From contig JAFTUC010000006.1 of NCBI GenBank assembly GCA_017466445.1, positions 1,451 through 65,450 on the forward strand: DNA of 64,000 nucleotides, in the 5' to 3' direction. Positions 1,225 to 13,966 of the stretch are shown piece by piece. Origin of the DNA: Clostridia bacterium. Lineage in GTDB: Bacteria > Bacillota > Clostridia > Oscillospirales > CAG-272. The notes under the pieces are model-generated. The model was not told where the DNA came from, searched no databases, and worked only from the letters and a program-made list of their open reading frames with translations. Each line of letters begins with the position of its first letter. Position 1 is the stretch's first letter. The position numbers and the translations under genes were made by a program.

Positions 1225-1517
1225 TAAAAACATCTCTTTTCTTAAAAGTCTTTCAAATACCACTAATTATACAACACTTTTAGACAAGTTTCAAGACTTT
1301 TTGCATTTTCTCCTGAAAAGTATCATGCTACGAATCATACGACAAGTAAAGTCTTTCAAGAAAATCTGCATATCTTATGGCAATAAACAAAAACTCCTTC
1401 GCCCCGCCGTGTTTAATTTACTGCATATGATAACACAGACTCGGCTATTATAAGCGAGATCAAATTTACCGTTATCGGAAGACTATATTTACATTTAGTT
1501 TTTTAGCATCATCGTGT

Positions 1518-2408
1518 TTAGCGATCACTTTTTTGTGGTTTAAGTTTATTTTTTCTGTATTTTGCCGGTGTAGTGCCGTAATATCGTGTAAACTCACGGT
1601 AAAATCCCGAAGGAGAGGTAAATCCCACTTCTCTACCGACCTCTTCCACGGTAATATCGGTTGTTACAAGCAGTCTTTCCGCAGCCTGAACGCGCTTTTC
1701 CATCATAACACTATGAAGTGACTTGCCGTAACGTCTACGAACTATACGGTCAAGCTGACGGCCACTTATATAAAGTTCGGCTGCAATACACTCAAGACGT
1801 ATATCCTCTGCACAAAAATCGGCAATTATACTATCCAGACGCATCATCCTGTTGATATCATATCTGTCACTCTCGAACGATTTCTCAACACTCACAGTGT
1901 CGCGCATTCTATCGGATATCGATAGCAGAAGCTCCACAGCCCTTATTGCGGGCAATATCTCCGAGCCTTTTGAATCTTCTGACAAAACATTCATTGAGCT
2001 TTGGCAAAGATCGAGAACATCTCGATAAACCAATGGCCTATCACCCGAGACGTAACGATGCAGTTTTTTGTAAACGTCGCACACTCTGCCCCTATTACGC
2101 TTTTCACATATAAAGCTCCATACCGCGATCTCGCTTTTCGGAGTCGAGCAAAACATACAATGACGTACCCAAGGAGGAACTATCACAAGATCTCCTTGCT
2201 CGAGAATCAAGGTATTTTCATCGGTAATAATCTGCACTCCTCCCTTTGTCACGGCAAACAGCTCTGCCGAAACGTGGCTATGAAGATCGGGGAATTTCTC
2301 ATCCTTCTTACACTCTTCCGAAGATCCACTTATCAGCATGCGGAACTGTATGTTTTCTATAGCGATAGAATATTCTCTCCATTCGGTCGGAGCTATCTTT
2401 ATTTCCAC
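1518..2408 (-). CDS. AraC family transcriptional regulator (cupin sensor domain plus C-terminal HTH)
   Basis: 296-aa ORF. The N-terminal half is cupin-like (GDLVIVPPWVRH). The C-terminus has the AraC HTH signature (VGFTSPSGFYREFTRYYGTTPAKYR). Confidence 0.85.
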   Translation of the reverse strand: MEIKIAPTEWREYSIAIENIQFRMLISGSSEECKKDEKFPDLHSHVSAELFAVTKGGVQIITDENTLILEQGDLVIVPPWVRHCMFCSTPKSEIAVWSFICEKRNRGRVCDVYKKLHRYVSGDRPLVYRDVLDLCQSSMNVLSEDSKGSEILPAIRAVELLLSISDRMRDTVSVEKSFESDRYDINRMMRLDSIIADFCAEDIRLECIAAELYISGRQLDRIVRRRYGKSLHSVMMEKRVQAAERLLVTTDITVEEVGREVGFTSPSGFYREFTRYYGTTPAKYRKNKLKPQKSDR

Positions 2409-2579
2409 CGTACACCACCTCTATAAGATATTATACTTTTATTTTCAGACATCGTCAAGGTTTTTTCTTTTATTTTATGACATGTCATTTCGTAATTGTC
2501 GTAAATCTCTATTTACATATGTGCATTTTATCGTATATAATCGTTTTGATCTATTTCTCTTTACGTAAGGAGTCGTTTT

Positions 2580-4016
2580 ATGAAAAAAAATTTAAACATT
2601 GGACAAAATCGAGAAATGTTCTGGGACGATTATTTAATCGATACTCAAAAAAGCACTGTTTCTTTCAGAATTAACAACCCGATAAAAAAAGAGCTTTGCT
2701 TTGTTTTGGATGAAAAAAGGGAAAAAACAAGTATAAGCTACCCTTGCGTTGTAAAAGACAGCAAAGGTTTTAAAATGTACTATACACCGAGTGACGATCC
2801 AAACGTTTGGCCGCCTGTTAATTATATAAGCCTTATTGAAAGCAAGGACGGTATCAATTGGACAAAGCCTTCGCTTGATATTTTCGACCATCCCGAATTA
2901 AAAGTAAATAACGTCGTACTTGAAGGTCTTGCAGACAGTGCTTCCTTTTTCTACGATAACAACCCCAGCTGCCCCGCAGAAGAGAAGTACAAGGCTATCG
3001 GAAAAACCAAGGGCGAAGTAAACGGAGAAGAAAAAGAAGGACTTTGGTGCTGGACCTCGGCAGACGGATACAACTTCAAGCTTACACATTTTCTCACAGA
3101 CAAGGGACATTTTGATTCACTTAACACTATTGTTTGGCAGAGTGGCAGATATACTTGCTTTTTCAGAGGCTTCCATAACATCATCCCCGGCGGCGAGATA
3201 AGCTGGGCTACGCGTGATGTCAGAGTGATGCATTCGGATGACTTTAAGAATTGGTCTGACCCTAAAATGATAAAATTTTCCGACAATCTCGATTATGCAC
3301 TTTACACAAACAACGCTTTGCCCTATGAAAGAGCGTCACAATATATCGTCGGATTTCCGACCCGCTATTTTGAGCGCAAAGGCTGGACCGAAAATATAAA
3401 ACAAATGCCAAGCTACGGCACCAAAGTAAAGGCTGCGGAAAGCTATGCTCTGCAGGTAGATAAGGATAGAACGGGGCTTGTAAATACCGACTGTATATTT
3501 ATGTTCAGCAGAGACGGCGGCGATAACTGGCACAGATACAGCGAGGCTTTTTACACACCGGGCTATGAAAATGAGTCGAACTGGGTTTACGGTGACTGTT
3601 ATCCGTCCTATAATCTAGTGGATCTCGGCGACGAAAATTATTACTTTTATGACGTTACAGGTCATTTGAGTCACGGCGAGCCCAAATCTATTTACCGTTA
3701 TGCAATTCGCAAAGACGGTTTTGCTTACGCCACATCGGGCGGCGAGGAAGGTGTAATTGTAACAAAACCGCTGATTTTTGACGGTAAATATTTACACCTT
3801 AATTTCTCCACATCGGCTTATGGCTATATCTATATCGATATACTTGATGAAGAGGGCAATGAAATTTCAGGAAGAAGCTTTGAAATTTACGGCGATAATA
3901 TTGACCGAAAAATTACCTTTGAGGACGGAAGCGATTTTTCCGCGTTTGCAGGCAGGCCTGTGAGAATTCGTTTTAAGATCTTAGATGCAAAGCTTTATTC
4001 CATGAAGTTTGAATAA
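2580..4016 (+). CDS. Cytoplasmic BNR/Asp-box beta-propeller protein, glycoside-hydrolase-like (sialidase superfamily), with C-terminal beta-sandwich
   Basis: 478-aa ORF with an AAGGAG RBS 8 nt upstream. Asp-box-like motifs are present (ESKDGINW, SRDGGDNW). There is no signal peptide. It is divergent from the AraC gene. Confidence 0.6.
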   Translation: MKKNLNIGQNREMFWDDYLIDTQKSTVSFRINNPIKKELCFVLDEKREKTSISYPCVVKDSKGFKMYYTPSDDPNVWPPVNYISLIESKDGINWTKPSLDIFDHPELKVNNVVLEGLADSASFFYDNNPSCPAEEKYKAIGKTKGEVNGEEKEGLWCWTSADGYNFKLTHFLTDKGHFDSLNTIVWQSGRYTCFFRGFHNIIPGGEISWATRDVRVMHSDDFKNWSDPKMIKFSDNLDYALYTNNALPYERASQYIVGFPTRYFERKGWTENIKQMPSYGTKVKAAESYALQVDKDRTGLVNTDCIFMFSRDGGDNWHRYSEAFYTPGYENESNWVYGDCYPSYNLVDLGDENYYFYDVTGHLSHGEPKSIYRYAIRKDGFAYATSGGEEGVIVTKPLIFDGKYLHLNFSTSAYGYIYIDILDEEGNEISGRSFEIYGDNIDRKITFEDGSDFSAFAGRPVRIRFKILDAKLYSMKFE

Positions 4017-4028
4017 AGAGGAGAATCA

Positions 4029-4232
4029 ATGAAGCTACCTGAATTTGATCGCTATGCCATAGATATTCACTCCCATTTTAATCATGGAGTACCGGGCGAT
4101 CACATCAATTCCGGTATCGATATGCTTAATCTCAGTACACTAATATTTTTATACGTATGGGTTATACACCATATATTCCGAAGTTTCAAGATATTTTTGA
4201 ATTTTAACAAAAAAATCCGAAAAACATCTTGA
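4029..4232 (+). pseudogene. Truncated metal-dependent hydrolase (amidohydrolase/PHP-like) gene; only about 35 N-terminal codons look genuine
   Basis: Good RBS (GAGGAG). The N-terminus MKLPEFDRYAIDIHSHFNHGVPGDH carries the HxH metal motif. After about position 4135 the frame runs into AT-rich low-complexity sequence and stops at 67 aa. Confidence 0.45.
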
Positions 4233-4257
4233 AAAAGCCATTACCCTCTGTTATAAT
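4229..4257 (+). promoter_or_regulatory. SigA-type promoter for the aldolase gene
   Basis: TTGAAA (4229-4234), a 17-nt spacer, then TATAAT (4252-4257). It lies 30 nt upstream of the ATG at 4287. Confidence 0.55.
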
Positions 4258-4286
4258 TTATTTTATCCATCACACGGAGGTGTAAA

Positions 4287-5264
4287 ATGACAGTAAGAAA
4301 AGGTAATCTGATGTCCGTTCGTGACGATATAAAGCTTCTTGATGCTACGATCAGAGACGGCGGACTTTGCAACAATTTTGAGTTCAGTGACGAATTTGTA
4401 AAAGAGCTCTACAAGACAAACGTAAAGAGCGGAATAGACTATATGGAGTTCGGATACCGCGCAAGCAAGGCGATGTTCGACGAGAGCGAGTTCGGAAAAT
4501 GGAAATTCTGTAAGGAGGAGGACATCCGCGCGATCGTAGGTGACAATCCCTCGGACATGAAGATAGCGGTCATGGCAGACGTTGGAAGATGCGATTACAA
4601 GACCGATTTTCTTCCCAAGAGCGAGAGCGTGATCGACATGGTAAGAGTCGCGTGCTACATCCACCAGATCCCCACGGCAGTCGAGATGATCGAGCATTTT
4701 CATGCGCTCGGATACGAGACCACCTGCAACATAATGGCGGTATCTCAGGCAAACACCGATCAGATAACCCAGGCGCTCGACATGTTATGCAGCACGAGCG
4801 TAGACGTTATCTATCTCGTTGACAGCTACGGCTCTCTCTACCCCGAGAACGCCTCCGAGCTTTCAAAGACCTACATTGCAGCAGCCGAAAACACGGGCAA
4901 GAAGATAGGATTCCATGCACACAACAATCTGAACCTCGCATTTGCGAACACGATAGAGACCATGTCATACGGAGTTTCCTTCCTCGACGCGACCGTTCAA
5001 GGAATGGGCCGCGGTGCCGGTAACTGCCCGATGGAGCTCCTTCTCGGCTTCCTCAAGAATCCGAAATACAACCTTTACCACCTTCTCAAGTTCATCGAGA
5101 AGTATATGCTCATGCTCAGAGAGGAGGGCGTCGTGTGGGGCTACGATCTCCAGTATATGTTTACCGGGTTTCTTAACCGTCACCCACGCGAGGCCATCGA
5201 TTTTACGTCGAAGGACCGCAAGGATTATTCGGAGTTCTACAAGTCGCTGCTTGAAAATTACTGA
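4287..5264 (+). CDS. HMGL-like / DRE-TIM metallolyase family aldolase (pyruvate carboxyltransferase fold)
   Basis: 325-aa ORF with a GGAGG RBS. Family motifs are present: LLDATIRDGG near the N-terminus, HAHNNLNLAFANT, and MGRGAGNCPMELL. Confidence 0.8.
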   Translation: MTVRKGNLMSVRDDIKLLDATIRDGGLCNNFEFSDEFVKELYKTNVKSGIDYMEFGYRASKAMFDESEFGKWKFCKEEDIRAIVGDNPSDMKIAVMADVGRCDYKTDFLPKSESVIDMVRVACYIHQIPTAVEMIEHFHALGYETTCNIMAVSQANTDQITQALDMLCSTSVDVIYLVDSYGSLYPENASELSKTYIAAAENTGKKIGFHAHNNLNLAFANTIETMSYGVSFLDATVQGMGRGAGNCPMELLLGFLKNPKYNLYHLLKFIEKYMLMLREEGVVWGYDLQYMFTGFLNRHPREAIDFTSKDRKDYSEFYKSLLENY

Positions 5265-5274
5265 TTTCAAGTTC
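5214..5274. repeat. Direct repeat copy 1 (61 bp): last 16 codons plus stop of the aldolase gene, plus 10 nt
   Basis: Identical base for base to 7459-7519 (gaccgcaaggattattcggagttctacaagtcgctgcttgaaaattactgatttcaagttc). Confidence 0.95.
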
Positions 5275-5277
5275 AAA

Positions 5278-5305
5278 ACAAGCCTTCGTTGAGGGCTTGT
5301 TTTTT
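5278..5305 (+). terminator. Rho-independent terminator directly after repeat copy 1
   Basis: Stem acaagcc/ggcttgt with a 9-nt loop, followed by TTTTT. Confidence 0.6.
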
Positions 5306-5335
5306 GGATTTACGATTTAGAATAAGGAAAATGTT

Positions 5336-7435
5336 ATGAAAAATGACAAACAGGAAAAGGAATATATAAGTGATAATACGCAACTGATGCAAGAGTGGGA
5401 TTATTCCAAAAATCAAGGGCTTACGCCAACTTCAGTAGCAAAATACAGCAACAAAAAGATGTGGTGGATTTGTCCCAAGGGACATAGTTATCAGTCTCCT
5501 GCAGCTAGACGTGCTAGTGGTGTAGGTTGTCCGTATTGTAGTGGAAGACTTGTAATAGAAGGGGAAAATGACCTTGCAACACTAAGACCTGATCTGGCGA
5601 AACAGTGGAATTTTGAAAAAAACCATCCGCTATTGCCGTCACAGATTAAACCAAGAAGCGGAAAGAAGGTATGGTGGATTTGTGACAAAGGACACGAATA
5701 TGAGGATACCGTAACGCACAGAACGGGAGGAAGGGGTTGTCCATATTGTTCCAATAAAAGGGTTTTGAAGGGATATAACGATTTTGAAACGGTTTATCCG
5801 GAATTTGCAAAAGAATGGCATCCTACTAAAAATGGAGATTTGATGCCGCATATGATTGTGGCAGGTAGTCATTTAAGGGTGTGGTGGCAATGTGCTGCTT
5901 GTGGAAATGAGTGGGAAACTGCAGCAATGAAACGCCTTGGCTGTCCTGCTTGTTCTGCAAAAAGAACGACGTCTTTTCCCGAGCAAGCAATATTTTTCTA
6001 TATAAAGCAAGTATATCCTGATGCGATTAACAATTATAAATTCGAAGGTGTTGAGTTCGATATATATATTCCCTCCGTAAACACCGCAATTGAGTATGAT
6101 GGAGTTTTTTATCATAAAAATGTTCGAGTTATAAACAAGGATTTTAACAAAGATAATTTGTGCAAGCAAAACGGAATAACTCTTTTTAGATTCAGAGATC
6201 CGAAATTACCGAAAACAGATTATGCAACTGTAATAGTTTGTACGGATTCTTATCGTGATGAAGAGTTTGAAAACGCTATAAAAGAACTTTTTGGATATCT
6301 AAAACCAACAGTAATGCCAAACATTTCTTTGGAAGATGATAAAGCTATTATACTGAAAAGGAGTCAGCAACATCGCAAAGAAAACAATTTAATATCCCTT
6401 TTTCCGGCAATTGCCGCACAGTGGAATTATGAGAAAAACGCCCCCTTGACTCCTCAGTATTTTCCGCCGAAAAGCAACAGAAAGGTATGGTGGAAATGTG
6501 AAAACGGACATGAATGGGAAACGACTATCGGATCGCGTACTGCCGGAACAGGTTGCCCGTTCTGCAGTGGTAACAGAATGCTGGTAGGCGAAAACGATTT
6601 AGTAACGCTTCGTCCCGATATAGCGGCTGAATGGAATTACGAAAAAAACGGGGAACTTCTTCCAGAACAGGTGAGCGTGTTTTCCAATAAGAGAGTGTGG
6701 TGGAAATGCTCTGGATGTGGATTCGAATGGATAACTAGTCCGGGAAATAGAGACGATGTACTTTGTAAAAAATGTAAATCAAAGTTGCTCGGTGAAAAAA
6801 GAAGTAGGGTTGCTGCCGAGAAAAATCCTTTATGTGAGAAATATCCGGAAATTGCTGCTCAATGGCATCCCACAAAAAACGGGAATCTAACAGCTAAAGA
6901 CATCTCGTGCAGTTCTGGTTTGCGAGCATGGTGGATTTGCAGTAAAGGACATGAGTGGCAATCGTATGTAAGTAACAGAACAAAGGATAATTTGGGCTGC
7001 CCATACTGCGGGAATCAAAAAATCCTTCCCGGATTCAACGATTTGAAATCACAGTTTCCAAATTTAGCAAAAGAATGGCACCCCACAAAAAATGAACTCT
7101 TGTTTCCTGAGCAAGTTTTTCCCAAAAGCTCCAAAAAGGTATGGTGGATTTGTCAAAACGGACATGAATGGGAAGCGACTATCGGATCGCGTACTGCTGG
7201 AACAGATTGCCCATTCTGCTCGGGAAAAAGAGCGTGGGCAGGCGAGAACGATTTGTTAACGTTAAGACCTAATGTTGCAGCTGAATGGAATTACGCTAAA
7301 AATGGTCAACTTACACCTGAAAAGGTGACAGTGTTTTCCAACAAAAAAGTGTGGTGGAAATGTTCGGAAGACCACGAGTGGGAGGCAGTAATACAGCGTC
7401 GCAGTAAAGGTTTTGGAAAATGTCCGGTTTGTTAA
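5336..7435 (+). CDS. Multi-zinc-ribbon protein: 8 treble-clef-like modules (3 + 5) flanking a PD-(D/E)xK (Vsr/DUF559-like) nuclease core
   Basis: 699-aa ORF. The repeating unit is W(N/H)xxKN..LxP..V..SxKKVWWxCxxGHEW..(G)CPxC(S)G. Module starts fall at W21, W91, W161, W363, W433, W510, W581 and W651. The central segment FPEQAIFFYIK..VEFDIYIP..AIEYDGVFYHK resembles restriction-endonuclease-fold cores. Confidence 0.8.
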   Translation: MKNDKQEKEYISDNTQLMQEWDYSKNQGLTPTSVAKYSNKKMWWICPKGHSYQSPAARRASGVGCPYCSGRLVIEGENDLATLRPDLAKQWNFEKNHPLLPSQIKPRSGKKVWWICDKGHEYEDTVTHRTGGRGCPYCSNKRVLKGYNDFETVYPEFAKEWHPTKNGDLMPHMIVAGSHLRVWWQCAACGNEWETAAMKRLGCPACSAKRTTSFPEQAIFFYIKQVYPDAINNYKFEGVEFDIYIPSVNTAIEYDGVFYHKNVRVINKDFNKDNLCKQNGITLFRFRDPKLPKTDYATVIVCTDSYRDEEFENAIKELFGYLKPTVMPNISLEDDKAIILKRSQQHRKENNLISLFPAIAAQWNYEKNAPLTPQYFPPKSNRKVWWKCENGHEWETTIGSRTAGTGCPFCSGNRMLVGENDLVTLRPDIAAEWNYEKNGELLPEQVSVFSNKRVWWKCSGCGFEWITSPGNRDDVLCKKCKSKLLGEKRSRVAAEKNPLCEKYPEIAAQWHPTKNGNLTAKDISCSSGLRAWWICSKGHEWQSYVSNRTKDNLGCPYCGNQKILPGFNDLKSQFPNLAKEWHPTKNELLFPEQVFPKSSKKVWWICQNGHEWEATIGSRTAGTDCPFCSGKRAWAGENDLLTLRPNVAAEWNYAKNGQLTPEKVTVFSNKKVWWKCSEDHEWEAVIQRRSKGFGKCPVC
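6481..6710 (+). repeat. Intragenic DNA duplication, copy A (zinc-ribbon modules 4-5)
   Basis: Aligns with 7135-7364 at a constant in-frame offset of 654 nt. The first ~85 bp are about 90 percent identical (aaaggtatggtgga..aaaacggacatgaatgggaa.cgactatcggatcgcgtactgc). Confidence 0.85.
7135..7364 (+). repeat. Intragenic DNA duplication, copy B (zinc-ribbon modules 7-8)
   Basis: See copy A. The 654-nt (218-codon) offset matches W363->W581 and W433->W651. Confidence 0.85.
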
Positions 7436-7458
7436 AAACAAAAATAATATATATTAAA

Positions 7459-7519
7459 GACCGCAAGGATTATTCGGAGTTCTACAAGTCGCTGCTTGAA
7501 AATTACTGATTTCAAGTTC
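7459..7519. repeat. Direct repeat copy 2 (61 bp): orphan copy of the aldolase 3' end
   Basis: Identical to 5214-5274. It is not attached to any upstream aldolase coding sequence. Confidence 0.95.
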
Positions 7520-7548
7520 GGCAAGCGCTTTTAAGATCCAAATCTGAT

Positions 7549-7585
7549 CACCCGAGGGCAAAAACTCGCCTTCGGGTGGTTTTTA
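7549..7585 (+). terminator. Rho-independent terminator, probably the original aldolase terminator
   Basis: Stem cacccgaggg / ccttcgggtg (one mismatch), followed by GTTTTT. Confidence 0.7.
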
Positions 7586-7665
7586 TTTCCCGCGGATAGC
7601 GTACTTAGAAAATCTACGCATGCAAAATGTATATTTTTCGATATTCATGCATATTCGCACGATTT

Positions 7666-7683
7666 TATGCATTTTTATTCGCA
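7666..7683. promoter_or_regulatory. Distal ARG-box-like site
   Basis: tatgcatttttattcgca matches TNTGAATWWWWATTCANW at 14 of 16 defined positions. It lies about 190 bp upstream of the argG promoter. Confidence 0.3.
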
Positions 7684-7861
7684 CGTCCGATTCCCCGTTC
7701 CGAGGCGTCAAAAAAATGACAGTCCCTCCGTCTTTTACGCTCACAAGGCACTTCAAAGAGTCCAAAACCCCGTTTTTTATTGTTAATATGCACAATATTA
7801 GCAGTCTGTTATTGTGAAGAATTACAAAAAGAGACAAAAATAAAAAAAATCGCGAAAAGCA

Positions 7862-7910
7862 CTTGAATATTTATTCGCTTTGCGTTATAATCATAGCATA
7901 AATATTCACA
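7862..7910 (+). promoter_or_regulatory. argG promoter overlapped by two ARG boxes (ArgR/AhrC operator)
   Basis: -35 TTGAAT (7863-7868), 17-nt spacer, -10 TATAAT (7886-7891). Box 1 is cttgaatatttattcgct (7862-7879, 2 mismatches). Box 2 is atagcataaatattcaca (7893-7910, 3 mismatches). Both are scored against TNTGAATWWWWATTCANW. Confidence 0.6.
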
Positions 7911-7933
7911 GCGGTCACGGAGGCTATATAATA

Positions 7934-9166
7934 ATGGATAAGAAAAACATAAAAAAAGTCGTTCTTGCATACTCGGGCGGACTTGACACCTCGATAATAA
8001 TTCCCTGGCTCAAGGAAAACTACAACAACTGCGAGGTCATCGCGGTATCGGGCAACGTAGGACAGGCAGACGAGCTCGAGGGTCTTGAGGAGAAGGCACT
8101 TAAGACGGGCGCTTCCAAGCTCTACATCGAGGATCTCACCGAGGAATTCGTAAACGACTACATCATCCCCACCGTAAAGGCAGGCGCTCTTTACGAGGAC
8201 TACATGCTCGGCACCTCGTTCGCAAGACCGGTAATCGCAAAGAGGATCGCGGAGATCGCGATCGCAGAGGGCGCTGACGCCATCTGCCACGGATGCACCG
8301 GCAAGGGCAACGACCAGGTAAGATTCGAGCTCACCATCAAGGCATTCGCTCCCGACATGCCCATCATCGCTCCCTGGAGAGAATGGAACATCAAATCGAG
8401 AGAAGAGGAGATCGACTACGCAGAGGCGCACAACGTTCCTCTTAAGATAAACAGAGAGACCAACTACTCCAAGGACAAGAACCTCTGGCACCTCTCTCAT
8501 GAGGGTCTCGACCTTGAGGACGCAGGAAACGAGCCTCTCTACGACAAGGAAGGCTTCCTTGAGATGGGCGTTTCTCCCATCAAGGCTCCCGACGCTCCCA
8601 CCTACATCGAGCTTGACTTCGTAAAGGGTTCTCCCGTAGCACTGAACGGCAAGGAGATGTCCGCAAAGGATATCATCCTCGAGCTCAACAAGCTCGGCGG
8701 AGAAAACGGAATCGGACTTCTCGACATCATCGAGAACAGACTCGTAGGTATGAAGTGCAGAGGCGTATACGAGACTCCCGGCGGAGCTATCCTCTACGAT
8801 GCACACAAATATCTCGAGACCATGACTCTTGACAAGATGACCGCTCACAAGAAGCAGGAGCTTGCCATCACCTTTGCGGATCTCGTCTACAACGGACAGT
8901 GGTTCACTCCCCTCAGAGAAGCTCTTTCGGCGTTCGTTGACAAGACTCAGGAGAACGTTACCGGAAAGGTAAGACTCAAGCTCTACAAGGGCAACATCAT
9001 CAAGGCAGGCGTATGGAGCGACTATTCGCTCTATTCAGAGGAGATCGCGACCTTCGGAGAAGACAACGTTTACAATCAGGCTGACAGCGCCGGATTCATC
9101 AACCTCTTCGGACTCCCGATCAAGGTTCAGGCACAGGTAAACGCCAAGAACAGCAAGAAAAACTAA
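7934..9166 (+). CDS. argG: Argininosuccinate synthase
   Basis: [20 protein letters not shown]..., the classic ArgG N-terminus. A GGAGG RBS lies at 7919-7923. The track ORF start at 7880 lies upstream of this RBS and within the promoter/ARG-box region, so I reject it. Confidence 0.95.
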
Positions 9167-9216
9167 AAGCGCACAATTAACTTCAAATAAATATTTTTTC
9201 TGAAAGGAAACATGTC

Positions 9217-10089
9217 ATGAAAAAAATCTTAGCACTTATTCTCGCAGCAGTTATGCTCACACTCACCTTCACCTCTTGCGCAGGAAGCAAGACCAAAATC
9301 GGAGTTCAGTCCGGAACCACCGGCGAATTCTATGTAAAGGGAAACGCCGATATGGAGCTTCCCGGATATTCTAACATCGAGTGCAAGGCATTCGACAACG
9401 GCGGTCTTGCAGTAAAGGCACTTCTCGACGGTCAGATCGATTATGTCGTCATCGACAACGAGCCCGCAAAGCAGCTTCTGGCAAAGAATCCCGATGACAT
9501 AAAGATCATTGATATCGCTCTCACCACCGAGCAGTATGCTTACGGTGTTGACAAAAATCAGCCCGAGCTTCTCGAGGACGTAAACGAGATCATCGCAGAG
9601 ATCAAGGAAAACGGAACTCTCAAGGCTATTTTCGACAAATATGCAGCTCTTGAGTATGATGATGAAGGCAATGTCATCGGCGGTGACGAGGCTATCGAAG
9701 GCATCGCAAGTGCTTCTAAAAACGCATCCAAAGCAGCTCAGCAGCTTGTAGTTTCCACAAACGCAGCCTTTGCTCCTTATGAATACAAGAAGGGCGACAA
9801 ATTCGTCGGAATCGACATGGAGATCGCTAAGCTTATCGCTGACGAGCTCGGTCTCGAGCTTGTTATCGAGGACATGGCTTTTGAGTCGGTCGTTACATCG
9901 GTAGGCAAGAACAACGTCGACATCGCAATGGCAGGTCTTTCGGTCACCGCTACCCGTAAGCAGTCGGTCAACTTCTCTGATGCTTACTATGAGGGCGCTT
10001 ACCAGGTCCTCATCGTCAAAAAGGACAACACCGAATTTGACAAGTGCACCACCAAAGAAGACGTGGAAAAGATCCTTAAAACCAAATAA
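9217..10089 (+). CDS. Amino-acid ABC transporter substrate-binding lipoprotein (SBP type 3), circularly permuted domain order
   Basis: Signal peptide plus lipobox (LTFTSC). Residues ~27-150 match the C-terminal half of GlnH-type binding proteins. Residues ~177-270 (LVVSTNAAFAPYEYKKGDKFVGIDMEIAK..LSVTATRKQSVNFSDAYY) match the N-terminal half. Confidence 0.85.
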   Translation: MKKILALILAAVMLTLTFTSCAGSKTKIGVQSGTTGEFYVKGNADMELPGYSNIECKAFDNGGLAVKALLDGQIDYVVIDNEPAKQLLAKNPDDIKIIDIALTTEQYAYGVDKNQPELLEDVNEIIAEIKENGTLKAIFDKYAALEYDDEGNVIGGDEAIEGIASASKNASKAAQQLVVSTNAAFAPYEYKKGDKFVGIDMEIAKLIADELGLELVIEDMAFESVVTSVGKNNVDIAMAGLSVTATRKQSVNFSDAYYEGAYQVLIVKKDNTEFDKCTTKEDVEKILKTK

Positions 10090-10787
10090 TGAAGGCTTGG
10101 AATCTGTTCTATAAGCAGTTCATTACCTACGGCGGATACCGCAGCGTTCTCAACGGTCTTTTAGTGACTGTTGAGATCGCTGTTTTTGGACTTATTATCG
10201 GTATAGTCATAGGTACTTTGATCGCTTCTGTAAAAGTTACGCCCAAGACCCGACTTCTTCCTAAGATACTGGAAAAGATATGCGACGTTTACGTTGCCTT
10301 TTTCCGCGGTACTCCTATGGTAGTACAGCTCCTTATCGGATACTTTGTCCTCATGCCCTCGCTCGGTATCGCGATCGACGGCGTTATTGTCGCTATAATA
10401 GTATTCGGTCTTAACAGCGGAGCTTATGTATCCGAGATCATGCGTGCCGGTATCCAATCGGTAGACGCGGGGCAGCTTGAGGCAGGCAGAGCTGTGGGTC
10501 TTCCCTACTCTGTCGCGATGATGAAGATCGTCATCCCGCAATCTATAAAAAACATCCTTCCGACGCTCGGAAACGAATTTATCGTTCTCGTCAAGGAAAC
10601 ATCGGTGGTCAGCTTTATAGCGGTCGCTGACATTACAAAAGCATTCCGTTCGATCGGAGACGCAAACTACGAATACATAATTCCCTACTGTATACTCGCG
10701 CTTGTATATCTCGTTATGGTGCTCGGTATCACACTTGCTATCAAGCTGCTTGAAAGGAGGCTGAGACGAAATGAGCGAAAAGCATAA
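10089..10787 (+). CDS. Polar amino-acid ABC transporter permease (HisM/GlnP type)
   Basis: 232-aa polytopic ORF. Its start overlaps the upstream stop (TAATG). The family region [32 protein letters not shown] is present. Confidence 0.9.
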
Positions 10788-11628
10788 CGCATCTGAAACG
10801 CCTATCATTTCGGTAAAAGGTCTTACAAAAAGCTTTGGAAGCAATAATGTCCTGCGCGGTATAGATCTTGACATAGCAAACGGAGAAAAGATCTCGGTCA
10901 TCGGACCCTCCGGATGCGGAAAATCGACCTTTTTGCGTTGCCTCAACTGTATGGAGGATCCTACATCGGGAGCTATAATCTTCGACGGTGTTGATATTGC
11001 GGATATACGAGTCGATATCAACAAGCACCGCGAGCGCATCGGAATGGTATTTCAGCAGTTCAATCTCTTTAACAACAAGACGATCATAGAGAACATCATG
11101 CTCGCACCGACGTATGTGGCAAAAAGAGAGCTGCGCCGTACAAAGAGAAAGAATTTCTTTATAAAGCTCAAAAATATTTTCCGAAAAGAAAAAAAGGCAC
11201 TTCTGCCGATCACGACCACTAAAGCCGAAATAACGGAGAATGCCAAGAAGCAGGCCTATTCACTTCTCAAACGTATCGGTCTGGAGGAAAAGGCAGACGC
11301 TTATCCGTCCACTCTTTCGGGCGGACAAAAGCAGCGTATTGCCATCGTGCGTGCGCTTGCAATGAATCCCAAGGTCATACTCTTTGACGAGCCGACCTCG
11401 GCGCTCGACCCCGAAATGGTAGGTGAGGTCCTCGACGTTATGAAGGAGCTTGCACGCGAAGGAATGACGATGGTAGTCGTCACTCACGAGATGGGATTTG
11501 CGCGCGAGATCTCCGACCGAGTGATATTCATTGATGAAGGTCTCATTGCCGAAGAGGGAACGCCCGCAGAGATATTCGGAAACCCTCAGTGCGAGAGACT
11601 TCGCACCTTCCTTTCAAAAGTCCTCTAA
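10771..11628 (+). CDS. Amino-acid ABC transporter ATP-binding protein (GlnQ type) with a ~33-aa basic insertion
   Basis: Walker [10 protein letters not shown], signature LSGGQKQR, Walker [12 protein letters not shown]. There is an extra segment, [34 protein letters not shown]. Confidence 0.9.
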
Positions 11629-11658
11629 TAAAAACAACACAAAAACAACGGAAACAAT

Positions 11659-12591
11659 ATGAAAAAAGTATTTATTGACGGAAAAGCGGGAACTACCGGT
11701 CTGCGAATTGAGGAACGTCTGTCCTCTCGCGACGATGTGAACGTAATTTCCCTTCCCGAAGAGCTTCGCAAGGACATCGCGGCTCGAAAGCAGATAATAA
11801 ACGAATCCGATTTCGTTTTTCTCTGCCTGCCTGACGATGCAGCACGCGAAGCGGTATCACTCATAGAAAACGACACAACTGTCGTTATCGATGCGTCGAC
11901 CGCGCACCGCACAAATCCCGACTGGGCGTACGGATTTCCCGAGCTCGGAAGAGAGTTTGAGGAAAAGATCATAAATAGCCGCCGCATTGCAGTTCCCGGA
12001 TGTCACGCAAGCGGATTTATCGCTCTTGTATATCCTCTTATCAAAAACGGTTTCATATCGCCCGACACTCTTCTCAGTGTTTATTCTCTTACCGGTTACA
12101 GCGGTGGAGGTAAAAAGATGATCGCCGATTACGAATCGGACGAGCGTTCTGCGCTTCTCGGTGCGCCCCGTCAGTACGCACTCTCGCAGTCTCACAAGCA
12201 TCTCCCCGAAATGACAAAGATCACCGGTCTGTCCAATCCACCGATCTTTTCTCCCGTAGTTGCCGATTTTTATTCAGGAATGGAGGTCACGGTCCCGATA
12301 TTCGGCACGTGGCTCGAGGATCGCACGATAGATGACATAAGAGAACTATTCAATGAAGTTTATCCTTCTTCCGGCCTTGTGCGCTACACAGAAGGCACTG
12401 ACGAGGGCGGATTTATCAGCGCAGGCGCTCTTTCCTGCAAGGACTCTATGTCGATCGAGGTTTACGGAAACGACGATCGCATACTGCTCGTAGCGCGATA
12501 CGACAATCTGGGCAAGGGTGCCTCGGGCGCTGCTGTCGAGTGTCTGAATGTCAAGCTCGGATGCGACAAGACCAAGGGACTTGACGTCTAA
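11659..12591 (+). CDS. argC: N-acetyl-gamma-glutamyl-phosphate reductase (short, type-2 form)
   Basis: 310-aa ORF. MKKVFIDGKAGTTGLRI.. and the active-site region AVPGCHASG are present. Confidence 0.9.
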   Translation: MKKVFIDGKAGTTGLRIEERLSSRDDVNVISLPEELRKDIAARKQIINESDFVFLCLPDDAAREAVSLIENDTTVVIDASTAHRTNPDWAYGFPELGREFEEKIINSRRIAVPGCHASGFIALVYPLIKNGFISPDTLLSVYSLTGYSGGGKKMIADYESDERSALLGAPRQYALSQSHKHLPEMTKITGLSNPPIFSPVVADFYSGMEVTVPIFGTWLEDRTIDDIRELFNEVYPSSGLVRYTEGTDEGGFISAGALSCKDSMSIEVYGNDDRILLVARYDNLGKGASGAAVECLNVKLGCDKTKGLDV

Positions 12592-12609
12592 TATCAAAAT
12601 CAAAGCGGG

Positions 12610-12644
12610 ACTTATGCTCCTTTTTATAGAAAGGGAGCATAAGT
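12610..12644 (+). terminator. Hairpin after argC (weak terminator or attenuator)
   Basis: acttatgctcctt / aagggagcataagt with one bulge, followed by TTTC. Confidence 0.45.
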
Positions 12645-12751
12645 TTCTGCGCTGTCATAAAATGATTTTCCAAAGGCTTTAAGGACATTCAAAGCTCTCG
12701 GAAAGGTATTTTATGGCCTTAAAGTTTCTTATCCAAGAAAGGATCTTACAT

Positions 12752-13966
12752 ATGAAAATAATCGAAGGCGGAGTATGCGCTCCGAAGGGTTTCCTCGCAA
12801 ACGGAGTACACTGCGGAATCCGCAAGAACAAGACAAAGAAAGATCTTGCCTTAATATATTCCGAGTATCCCGCTTCCGCCGCGGCAGTATACACTACAAA
12901 CAAGGTCAAGGGAGCTCCACTAACCGTAACAAGGCAAAACATCTCCGACGGCTCTGCACGGGCAATAATCTGTAACAGCGGAAACGCTAACACCTGCAAC
13001 GCAAACGGCATAGAGATCGCAAGCCGGACCTGCGCTCTCATTGCAGATGAGCTTAACATCTCTCCCTCCGATGTCGTAGTAGCCTCCACGGGAGTTATAG
13101 GGCAACCTCTTGACATTGAGCCTATAAAAAATTCGGTATCCTCTCTCGCAGGCGGTCTGAACAAAAACGGAAGCCGCGACGCAGCCGAGGGCATTATGAC
13201 GACCGACACCCGTCTCAAGGAAATAGCTATATCTTTTGATATAGGAGGAAAAGAGTGCAGGATAGGCGGAATAGCCAAGGGATCGGGGATGATCCATCCC
13301 AACATGGCAACTATGCTCGTTTTTATAACCACCGACTGTGCGATAAGCTCCGAGATGCTCGGAAGAGCTCTTTCGAGCGACATTGCAAGCACCTTCAATA
13401 TGGTCAGTGTCGACGGTGACACCTCTACAAATGACATGGTGTGTGTTCTCGCCAACGGCGCGGCGGGAAATGACGAGATCGTTTCCGAGGGCGAAGATTT
13501 CAATGCATTTATGAAGGCGCTTAACACCTTGACCGTCGATCTCTGCCGCAAGATCGCAGGCGACGGCGAGGGTGCCTCAAAGCTCCTCGAATGCAAGGTC
13601 AGCGGAGCACTCGATCTTGAAAACGCTAAGATCATAGCAAAAAGCGTTATCTGCTCATCGCTCGTAAAGACCGCAATGTTCGGCTCGGACGCTAACTGGG
13701 GAAGGATCCTCTGCGCGATCGGATACAGCGGAGCATCGGTGGACGTTGACACAGTCGAAGTTTCCTTCGAATCGGCAAAAGGGGAGATCCTTGTGTGCAA
13801 AAACGGCGCGGGCGTCGATTTTTCCGAAGACAAGGCAAAGGAGATCCTGCTGGAAAACGAGATCGTAATAAACATCCGTCTCGGTGACGGAAATGCTTCT
13901 ACCACCGCATGGGGATGCGATCTTACTTACGAATACGTAAGAATAAACGGCGACTATCGCACTTGA
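12752..13966 (+). CDS. argJ: Bifunctional ornithine acetyltransferase / N-acetylglutamate synthase
   Basis: MKIIEGGVCAPKGFLANGVHCGIRKN.., with the autoprocessing region MATMLVFITTD. I chose the ATG at 12752 over the track start at 12713. Confidence 0.92.
   Translation: MKIIEGGVCAPKGFLANGVHCGIRKNKTKKDLALIYSEYPASAAAVYTTNKVKGAPLTVTRQNISDGSARAIICNSGNANTCNANGIEIASRTCALIADELNISPSDVVVASTGVIGQPLDIEPIKNSVSSLAGGLNKNGSRDAAEGIMTTDTRLKEIAISFDIGGKECRIGGIAKGSGMIHPNMATMLVFITTDCAISSEMLGRALSSDIASTFNMVSVDGDTSTNDMVCVLANGAAGNDEIVSEGEDFNAFMKALNTLTVDLCRKIAGDGEGASKLLECKVSGALDLENAKIIAKSVICSSLVKTAMFGSDANWGRILCAIGYSGASVDVDTVEVSFESAKGEILVCKNGAGVDFSEDKAKEILLENEIVINIRLGDGNASTTAWGCDLTYEYVRINGDYRT

Follow-up and report, generated by a model that had tools for sequence, protein, structure and literature searches.

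Homing endonucleases of the Vsr-like (EDxHD) lineage are the closest described relatives of a nuclease gene found in a 64,000-nt stretch of the chromosome of an uncultured gut Clostridia bacterium (GenBank assembly GCA_017466445.1, contig JAFTUC010000006.1), which is called the window below. The gene, at positions 5336 - 7435 of the window, encodes a protein of 699 residues, in which a nuclease core is embedded in an array of eight DUF4379 modules. I-Bth0305I, whose catalytic domain was crystallized as a D196A/H213A mutant (PDB 3R3P), is an EDxHD homing endonuclease from the recA intron of Bacillus phage 0305phi8-36 and has a footprint of about 60 bp, which it achieves through accessory DNA-binding regions (PMC3239194). 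The fold of this enzyme and the equivalents of its E, D196, N208, H213 and D222 are conserved in the core described here. The difference lies in the architecture and not in the catalytic domain. I-Bth0305I is an intron-encoded protein of about 266 residues that has N-terminal regions of the NUMOD/helix-turn-helix type, a C-terminal nuclease and no zinc modules, whereas here the core has DUF4379 modules on either side, and the gene stands alone between two others.

Several other systems share one or more of these properties. Hef of phage U5, a member of the Vsr-like family, cleaves nrdB (PMC2988022, PMC3239194). Hef and the Hef-like gp03 of Salmonella phage Jersey are, like the present gene, free-standing between conserved genes, but they are much shorter, have one to three degenerate modules and are carried by phages. 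A 2025 paper described phage-intron genes that combine 3 - 5 CapR/DUF4379-like modules with an EDxHD/Vsr nuclease at the C-terminus. Its authors regarded them as 'a large unrecognized outgroup' of homing endonucleases and noted thousands of unannotated relatives (PMC12350094). Those genes are made of the same two building blocks as ours, a CapR/DUF4379/DUF723-like module and an EDxHD/Vsr nuclease, and have the same proposed role. However, they reside inside group I or group II introns, whereas the gene in the window has eight modules (7 - 16 in its relatives), carries its core between modules 3 and 4, is located on a bacterial chromosome and has a known empty site. Proteins with '4 DUF4379 + restriction endonuclease' are found in marseilleviruses/giant viruses (PMC5513546); the DUF4379 literature is sparse, with the domain being named in 7 papers. 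The seg and mob genes of T4-type phages are also intergenic selfish nuclease genes that lie beside a conserved gene and spread by break repair (PMC2988022). Their folds (GIY-YIG and HNH) are unrelated, however, and the literature surveyed does not describe a target duplication bracketing them. Engineered zinc-finger nucleases and transcription activator-like effector (TALE) nucleases resemble our protein, by analogy only, in that an array of small tandem modules is tethered to a nuclease. Unlike them, it has another module fold, no demonstrated per-module DNA code, and the nuclease within the array instead of at its end.

The gene in the window, a recent insertion into the chromosome, is probably a free-standing endonuclease gene of the homing type and belongs, by its catalytic domain, to the Vsr-like (EDxHD) lineage. 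This explanation is favored because an empty site exists in the same species, the codon composition of the gene is foreign, the gene is absent from 80 orthologous loci, ORF-sized copies of relatives occur in unrelated contexts, and relatives in phages are annotated as homing endonucleases. Since the split-array architecture is common and the homing idea has been published in part (PMC12350094), the locus is less surprising than it appeared at first; what is new is the empty site in the same species. The locus is valuable because, with this natural empty site, the length of the target, the base pairs read per module, the cut positions and the origin of the duplication at the insertion site become testable. 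Such a pair is rare: a gene that is intact, as is its active site, and the natural empty target from the same species, with 99% flank identity.

A recent insertion and its empty site

All coordinates are positions in the window unless they are preceded by an L-number, which denotes another locus used in the comparison, and the inserted DNA with its gene, the repeat copies, the HMGL-like gene and its terminator are all on the forward strand. The nuclease gene is part of a recent 2.2-kb insertion with precise boundaries. The target is the 3' end of an HMGL-like (aldolase-type) gene (4287 - 5264), which is intact in the filled allele. The empty allele, found via the exact HMGL-like protein, is locus L169 (GCA_045532225.1) of the same species, where argG directly follows the HMGL-like gene. 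Window positions 4141 - 5274 correspond to L169 4855 - 5988 with 99.0% identity, and 7456 - 12509 correspond to L169 5925 - 10978 with 98.7% identity. The two blocks overlap by exactly 64 nt, and this segment is present in a single copy in L169. The window allele is therefore the L169 allele plus 2,245 nt, which consist of 2,181 nt of new DNA and a second copy of the 64-nt segment. The insertion is regarded as recent because a sister strain retains the exact empty site.

The left copy of the segment (5211 - 5274) comprises the last 17 codons of the HMGL-like gene, its stop codon and the 10 nt that follow, and is identical to the single copies in L169 and in a second locus, L003, described below. 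The right copy (7456 - 7519) is contiguous with the native downstream DNA. It has one difference, at position 7458, so that the two copies in the window are identical in 63 of 64 positions; the repeat had originally been measured as 61 bp. The inserted DNA proper (5275 - 7455) is composed of a hairpin, a leader, the gene and a trailer. The hairpin (5275 - 5303) resembles a terminator and starts at the first base past the left copy. The leader contains AAGGAA, similar to a ribosome-binding site, at 5324 - 5329, 6 nt before the ATG, and the trailer (7436 - 7455) is 20 nt long and AT-rich. The native intrinsic terminator of the HMGL-like gene is located at 7546 - 7581, and in the empty allele it lies directly past the single 64-nt copy. 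The insertion leaves the HMGL-like gene intact, with a new putative terminator supplied by the insert.

The codon composition of the nuclease gene is foreign. Its GC content at third codon positions is 0.349, compared to 0.663 in the HMGL-like gene and 0.692 in argG. In 80 genomes, orthologs of the HMGL-like gene were identified, and in none of these is the nuclease gene present within 6 kb; these orthologs, from uncultured Clostridia, Oscillospiraceae and Ruminococcus-like gut metagenome-assembled genomes (MAGs), are 79 - 92% identical to the HMGL-like protein. Filled alleles from at least four samples are nearly clonal, with no more than three single-nucleotide polymorphisms in 10 kb and none in the cassette. 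A metagenome scan with an exact 38-nt pattern of the right junction gave no matches. The 2,244-nt Logan contig L002, which contains the gene alone, was rejected as evidence of a circular form, as the ends of this contig (5245 and 7488) are exactly where a k=31 graph breaks at the repeat.

The nuclease core and the zinc modules

The core (residues 207 - 354; 5954 - 6397) was identified by a profile, an AlphaFold2 model, Foldseek and conservation. It reads TSFPEQAIFFYIK..VEFDIYIP..AIEYDGVFYHK..GITLFRF, and its catalytic block, E240, D242, E253, D255, H260, D269 and K272, is encoded at 6053 - 6151. The core alone matches PDB sequences at the level of noise only, and a profile is needed for a match. 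Compared with Pfam, it scores 17 bits against both DUF2726 (PF10881; cutoff 24.7) and REase_MTES_1575 (PF18741; cutoff 38.2), and some of its relatives barely pass the threshold of DUF559 (PF04480), with 21 - 25 bits against 20.6. The core belongs to a related superfamily and is, by the Pfam rule, not a member of DUF559, MTES_1575 or DUF2726. Short relatives, including one named DUF559, were retrieved with the core as query, and a hidden Markov model (HMM) was built from them. When 28 cores are aligned, the columns S, E.D, E.DG, H and K are invariant, and the best match of the resulting profile in the PDB is 3R3P (E-value 1.6e-4).

The HMMER alignment to 3R3P, combined with the residue numbers of PMC3239194, pairs D242 with D196 of I-Bth0305I (D51 of Vsr), D255 with N208 (Vsr H64), H260 with H213 (Vsr H69) and D269 with D222 (Vsr D97). 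E240, two residues N-terminal of D242, completes the E-D-x-H-D pattern. In 114 cores of homologous proteins, D242, H260 and K272 are conserved without exception, D255 and E253 in 113, and E240 in 109; position 269 is D in 77 and E in the remaining 37. The AlphaFold2 model of the core (pLDDT 88.5, pTM 0.84) leads to the same relative. The top Foldseek matches in the PDB are 3R3P_B/A, with a probability of 1.00 and a TM-score of 0.67 normalized to the target, followed at lower ranks by the DUF559 protein 3HRL (probability 0.75) and Vsr. PHROG families annotated as 'homing endonuclease' also match the core. By fold and motif the core is a Vsr/EDxHD-type nuclease with an intact catalytic set, and by profile and fold its closest solved relative is I-Bth0305I. 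The gene shares three properties with the EDxHD/Vsr-like lineage: the Vsr fold, the E-D-x-H-D motif, and presence and absence alleles with a precise empty site.

The remainder of the protein is made of zinc modules, assigned by Pfam and by writing out each module. Modules 1 - 3 (residues 13 - 82, 83 - 152 and 153 - 206; 5372 - 5953) precede the core, and the CPAC motif of module 3 abuts the start of the core directly. Modules 4 - 8 (residues 355 - 424, 425 - 494, 502 - 572, 573 - 642 and 643 - 699; 6398 - 7432) follow it, and the intact ORF ends with the stop codon at 7433 - 7435. The layout is thus three modules, a core of about 150 residues and five modules, with a repeat period of 70 residues and module starts at W21, W91, W161, W363, W433, W510, W581 and W651. 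Pfam DUF4379 (PF14311) matches eight stretches of the protein (E-value 4e-150, 488 bits), far above the gathering cutoff of 24.5. Each module follows the pattern (E/Q)W..(K)N, L.P, (V)WW.C-x2/3-(H/C) and a distal C-x2-C. The first ligand pair is WW.C-x3-H in modules 1, 2, 4, 6, 7 and 8 and WW.C-x2-C in modules 3 and 5, whereas the distal C-x2-C is present in all; four candidate metal ligands are kept in all eight modules. The array is not a product of chance, because the protein-level domain hits far exceed the threshold and there are thousands of homologs.

These results bear out most of the original prediction, which had been made from the letters of the DNA. The ORF of 699 residues, the eight modules at these tryptophans, the four ligands (C, H/C, C, C) in each of them and the DUF4379 type were all found as described. 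The central stretch quoted between modules 3 and 4 is present, and its assignment to a Vsr/DUF559-like restriction fold with conserved acidic and lysine residues agrees with the 3R3P profile, Foldseek and the 114 cores, which add a conserved histidine. The modules are of a putative zinc-binding type, as predicted, but Pfam classifies the domain as a probable treble clef and not as a zinc ribbon. A single-module model (pLDDT 81), in which a hairpin with the first pair of ligands lies between two short helices, does not settle the fold.

Each module presumably binds one zinc atom. We infer DNA binding by the array from its fusion to a DNA nuclease, the basic charge of the protein (98 K+R versus 79 D+E) and the role proposed for similar modules (PMC12350094). 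A fold search with the single-module model matched only kinetoplastid mitoribosome DUF4379 proteins (TM-score 0.73), and no DNA complex was among the matches. These proteins (mt-SAF33 and mS66; PDB 6SGA, 7PUA and 6HIW) are the sole solved structures of the module. They differ from our protein in having ribosome assembly or structural roles and no nuclease. Across 1,341 modules from the 120 best full-length homologs of the 699-residue protein, the conserved scaffold consists of EW, KN, WW.C, GH, CP.C and NDL, and the variable positions concentrate after KNG and between the two ligand pairs. Positions 6434 - 6711 and 7088 - 7365, which span modules 4/5 and 7/8, form an internal duplication of 278 nt with 78% identity. 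The array was enlarged by duplication of this two-module block, and if the modules read DNA, the target might hold a matching repeated sub-site.

Relatives and family architecture

The family is large. At least 7,961 proteins match the 699-residue protein at E-values of 1e-10 or better. In an exhaustive search, the core profile matches 27,358 cluster representatives (clustered at 50% identity) at E-values up to 1e-3 and 6,104 at up to 1e-10. According to an HMM search, 114 of the 120 best homologs contain exactly one core, which is located inside the array. The 120 proteins have 7 - 16 modules (median 11), in general about 2 - 9 before the core and 3 - 12 after it. These proteins and the cluster counts show that an array split around a nuclease is the norm in the family; the eight-module array bracketing a nuclease, originally taken to be exceptional, is close to the low end. 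The HMM and structure searches and the survey of copy numbers and neighborhoods, which the prediction had proposed as checks, gave a Vsr-type core, 7 - 16 modules and varied contexts. The findings that would have told against the prediction were a central region with neither nuclease-fold similarity nor conserved residues, and homologs in constant housekeeping contexts. Instead, the core has both, and the three nearest homologs (66, 60 and 54% identity) are found in three different contexts.

Other members of the family show further signs of mobility. The genes at L116 965 - 3306 and L121 6004 - 8345 are 96% identical over the ORF only; the identity sets in 3 nt ahead of the start codon and ends about 40 nt short of the stop codon, and their flanks are unrelated. 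The flanks of the L121 gene, with XRE-type regulators and a serine-recombinase-like ORF (9067 - 10710), look like a mobile element. In three further pairs the homology ends at the family gene or within 0.5 kb upstream of it. No leader or trailer that the gene in the window shares with its nearest relatives was found. L104 1 - 1793 and L137 4654 - 6442 are 90% identical in the DNA ahead of the family gene and in its initial ~440 nt and then diverge within the array, which suggests that module arrays are reshuffled by recombination.

Phage genomes contribute 127 matching records. The Jersey protein gp03 ('Hef-like homing endonuclease') aligns to modules 1 - 3 and the core with 25% identity, and the Hef-like gene of the Jersey group, which has CapR/DUF4379 and REase_MTES_1575 signals, lies between the portal and terminase genes. 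In Sporosarcina phage Lietuvens the gene for a DUF4379 protein is positioned between the helicase and primase genes. The phage records MT835483.1, MT104122.1 and KX190835.1 have three matching places each, and L117 contains a tandem pair of family genes (2908 - 4878 and 4901 - 7609). Selfish nuclease genes typically occur several times in one genome.

The 64-nt segment, modes of spread and neighboring DNA

Classical homing leaves no target duplication. The 64-nt duplication therefore needs to be explained, and a clue is provided by L003, a locus in the sheep-rectum Clostridia MAG RGIG6466, which is a different species. L003 6925 - 6988 is a single, uninterrupted copy of the segment, identical to the left copy of the window in 64 of 64 positions. 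The HMGL-like gene upstream of it is 83% identical to that of the window, and the DNA downstream is unrelated. The longest perfect run between the two genes (5209 - 5275, 67 nt) coincides with the repeat, and the next longest is 31 nt. Given a third-position identity of 0.61, the chance of 64 identical positions is about 1e-6. Because the identity covers this exact segment, the segment seems to have moved between species and to travel with the element. The L003 copy is a candidate for a natural target or for the site of a former host. A hyperconserved 3' end of the HMGL-like gene, as would be typical of a homing target, was considered and rejected: conservation across orthologs is lower in the segment (0.635) than in the rest of the gene (0.734), this order holds for 78 of the 80 orthologs, and only L003 is identical. 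An origin of the left copy from a diverged donor, with the right copy being native, is not supported, as there is no divergent tract and both copies are nearly identical to the empty allele.

Repeats also bracket two other family genes. In L166, the locus of the closest relative, a 35-nt repeat (91 - 125 and 2047 - 2081; 34 of 35 identical) is derived from the leader of the downstream GDSL-lipase gene. In L156, a 30-nt repeat (709 - 738 and 2521 - 2550; 27 of 30 identical) is coding sequence; it specifies W(T/I)IVNKVD in a short membrane-protein-like ORF that is interrupted, and the stop codon of the nuclease gene lies inside the downstream copy. Bracketing repeats were rejected as a family hallmark, however, because they occur at 2 of 61 family ORFs versus 2 of 157 large control ORFs, the two controls being a phosphoglucose isomerase and a permease. 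An apparent match in L117 turned out to be module similarity from the adjacent second family gene and not a flank repeat. The insertion also does not have the form of a transposon: the duplications are 64, 35 and 30 nt long, no terminal inverted repeats were reported around the insert, and the nuclease is its only gene. Both edges of the 64-nt duplication are preceded by similar 12-mers in direct orientation, GATTTTACGTCG at 5199 - 5210 and GATTTCAAGTTC at 5263 - 5274, which are 64 nt apart and identical in 8 of 12 positions. This similarity is weak, with a chance of about 1 in 100 by a rough binomial estimate, but the pair could mark two recognition or cut positions.

If the gene is a homing endonuclease gene, its spread would proceed as follows. 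The zinc array would align the protein with several tens of base pairs of the DNA, giving site specificity, and the central domain would cut by the Mg-dependent Vsr mechanism. The empty allele would be cut in or beside the 64-nt segment, and repair would copy the gene in. Of the readings of the duplication we prefer, at slightly less than even odds, one in which the cassette spreads as a repeat-gene-repeat unit and the 64-nt copies serve as short built-in homology arms for break repair. Such arms would allow the cassette to enter genomes that have only the short 64-nt piece in common with it. If the two copies later recombined, the gene would be lost and one converted copy would stay behind, as in L003 and possibly in L169.

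A number of observations do not sit easily with homing. The filled allele keeps both 64-nt copies intact, although it would have to escape re-cutting. The DNA beside the insert shows no divergent co-conversion tract, and no genome of another species was found to contain the cassette and qualify as a donor. The empty allele L169 may represent the ancestral state or a revertant. The bracketing repeats in the family show no demonstrable enrichment over the controls, the solved DUF4379 structures are those of ribosomal proteins and not of DNA binders, and the Pfam nuclease matches of the core remain below threshold.

The absence of a co-conversion tract would be accommodated by the main rival explanation, a different mode of entry of the same selfish gene and enzyme, which we regard as rather doubtful. 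In an ectopic, transposition-like insertion, the two strands would be nicked 64 nt apart, by one molecule of the nuclease or by two, a linear copy of the gene would be joined to the ends, and fill-in would create a 64-nt target-site duplication. The filled allele is the empty allele with an insert added and a stretch of host sequence exactly duplicated, the copies being identical in 63 of 64 positions, the L166 and L156 genes are bracketed by duplications of adjacent host sequence, and Vsr is a nickase, while I-Bth0305I often only nicks (PMC3239194). The similar 12-mers before both edges of the duplication also fit, although in direct orientation they would direct an asymmetric monomer to nick the same strand twice. 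The three duplication lengths speak against a fixed stagger, a duplication is absent from most family loci, and repeats bracket ordinary genes at a similarly low rate. Ectopic insertion does not account for the identity of exactly these 64 nt in another species. A third possibility is that a circle was integrated through the 64 nt in the Campbell manner.

The remaining alternatives concern the function of the protein and not its mode of entry. The original prediction had offered two hypotheses. Homing endonuclease is now strongly favored by the empty site, the codon composition and the phage relatives; a nuclease directed against mobile elements is not supported. Such a horizontally acquired defence nuclease, beneficial to the host and using its zinc array to recognize the DNA of phages or mobile elements, is very unlikely here. 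The gene is accessory and horizontally acquired, some relatives lie in mobile-element contexts beside integrases or recombinases, and restriction-fold nucleases are frequent in defence. However, PADLOC gave no significant match, only a 14-bit match to DruE over one module, there is no methylase, ATPase or immunity partner gene, and the neighborhood is not conserved. Phages themselves harbor relatives, in many cases several to a genome, as do introns (PMC12350094), and the closest characterized nuclease is a homing endonuclease. We give still less credence to a protein acting on RNA, with an RNA-binding array and a Vsr/RAP-like RNA endonuclease. This idea draws on the kinetoplastid mitoribosomes as the only place where DUF4379 modules have been solved, on a weak resemblance of the core model to Toxoplasma mitoribosomal proteins in Foldseek, and on Vsr-like domains of eukaryotic organelles (FASTKD4/RAP type), which are reported to act on RNA (PMC11879112). 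The catalytic set nevertheless matches that of the DNA-cutting Vsr and I-Bth0305I, and an RNA enzyme does not account for mobile-DNA behavior with a precise empty site.

A bolder version of the homing endonuclease reading is that the DUF4379 array is a true modular DNA reader flanking a nicking domain. Each module would read a fixed number of base pairs via the hypervariable positions that follow KNG and those that separate the ligand pairs, and the cassette would either carry its 64-nt target copies as portable homology arms or insert at widely staggered nicks. We consider this unlikely. If true, a homing gene could jump between species that have only a short sequence in common, and the modular reader would be the natural counterpart of engineered zinc-finger or TALE nucleases. 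Modular recognition would also mean that the family could yield nucleases or nickases with long targets. If recognition is not modular, the proteins would form a further annotated family of selfish nuclease genes, and thousands of 'zinc-ribbon domain-containing protein' labels would still be corrected.

To the left of the HMGL-like gene, 2,915 nt of the window (1226 - 4140) are lacking in L169, which has 16 unrelated nt instead, so that the HMGL-like gene is flanked by two strain-specific insertions. This region contains a gene for an AraC-family regulator (1518 - 2408), an ORF of 478 residues without a Pfam match (2580 - 4016) and an ORF of 67 residues, and the divergence between the strains climbs sharply just to the left of its junction (1099 - 1219). 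To the right, positions 7880 - 13966 form an arginine-biosynthesis neighborhood with argG, an amino-acid ABC transporter (binding protein, permease and ATPase), an argC-type semialdehyde dehydrogenase and argJ, which is syntenic in the filled and empty strains.

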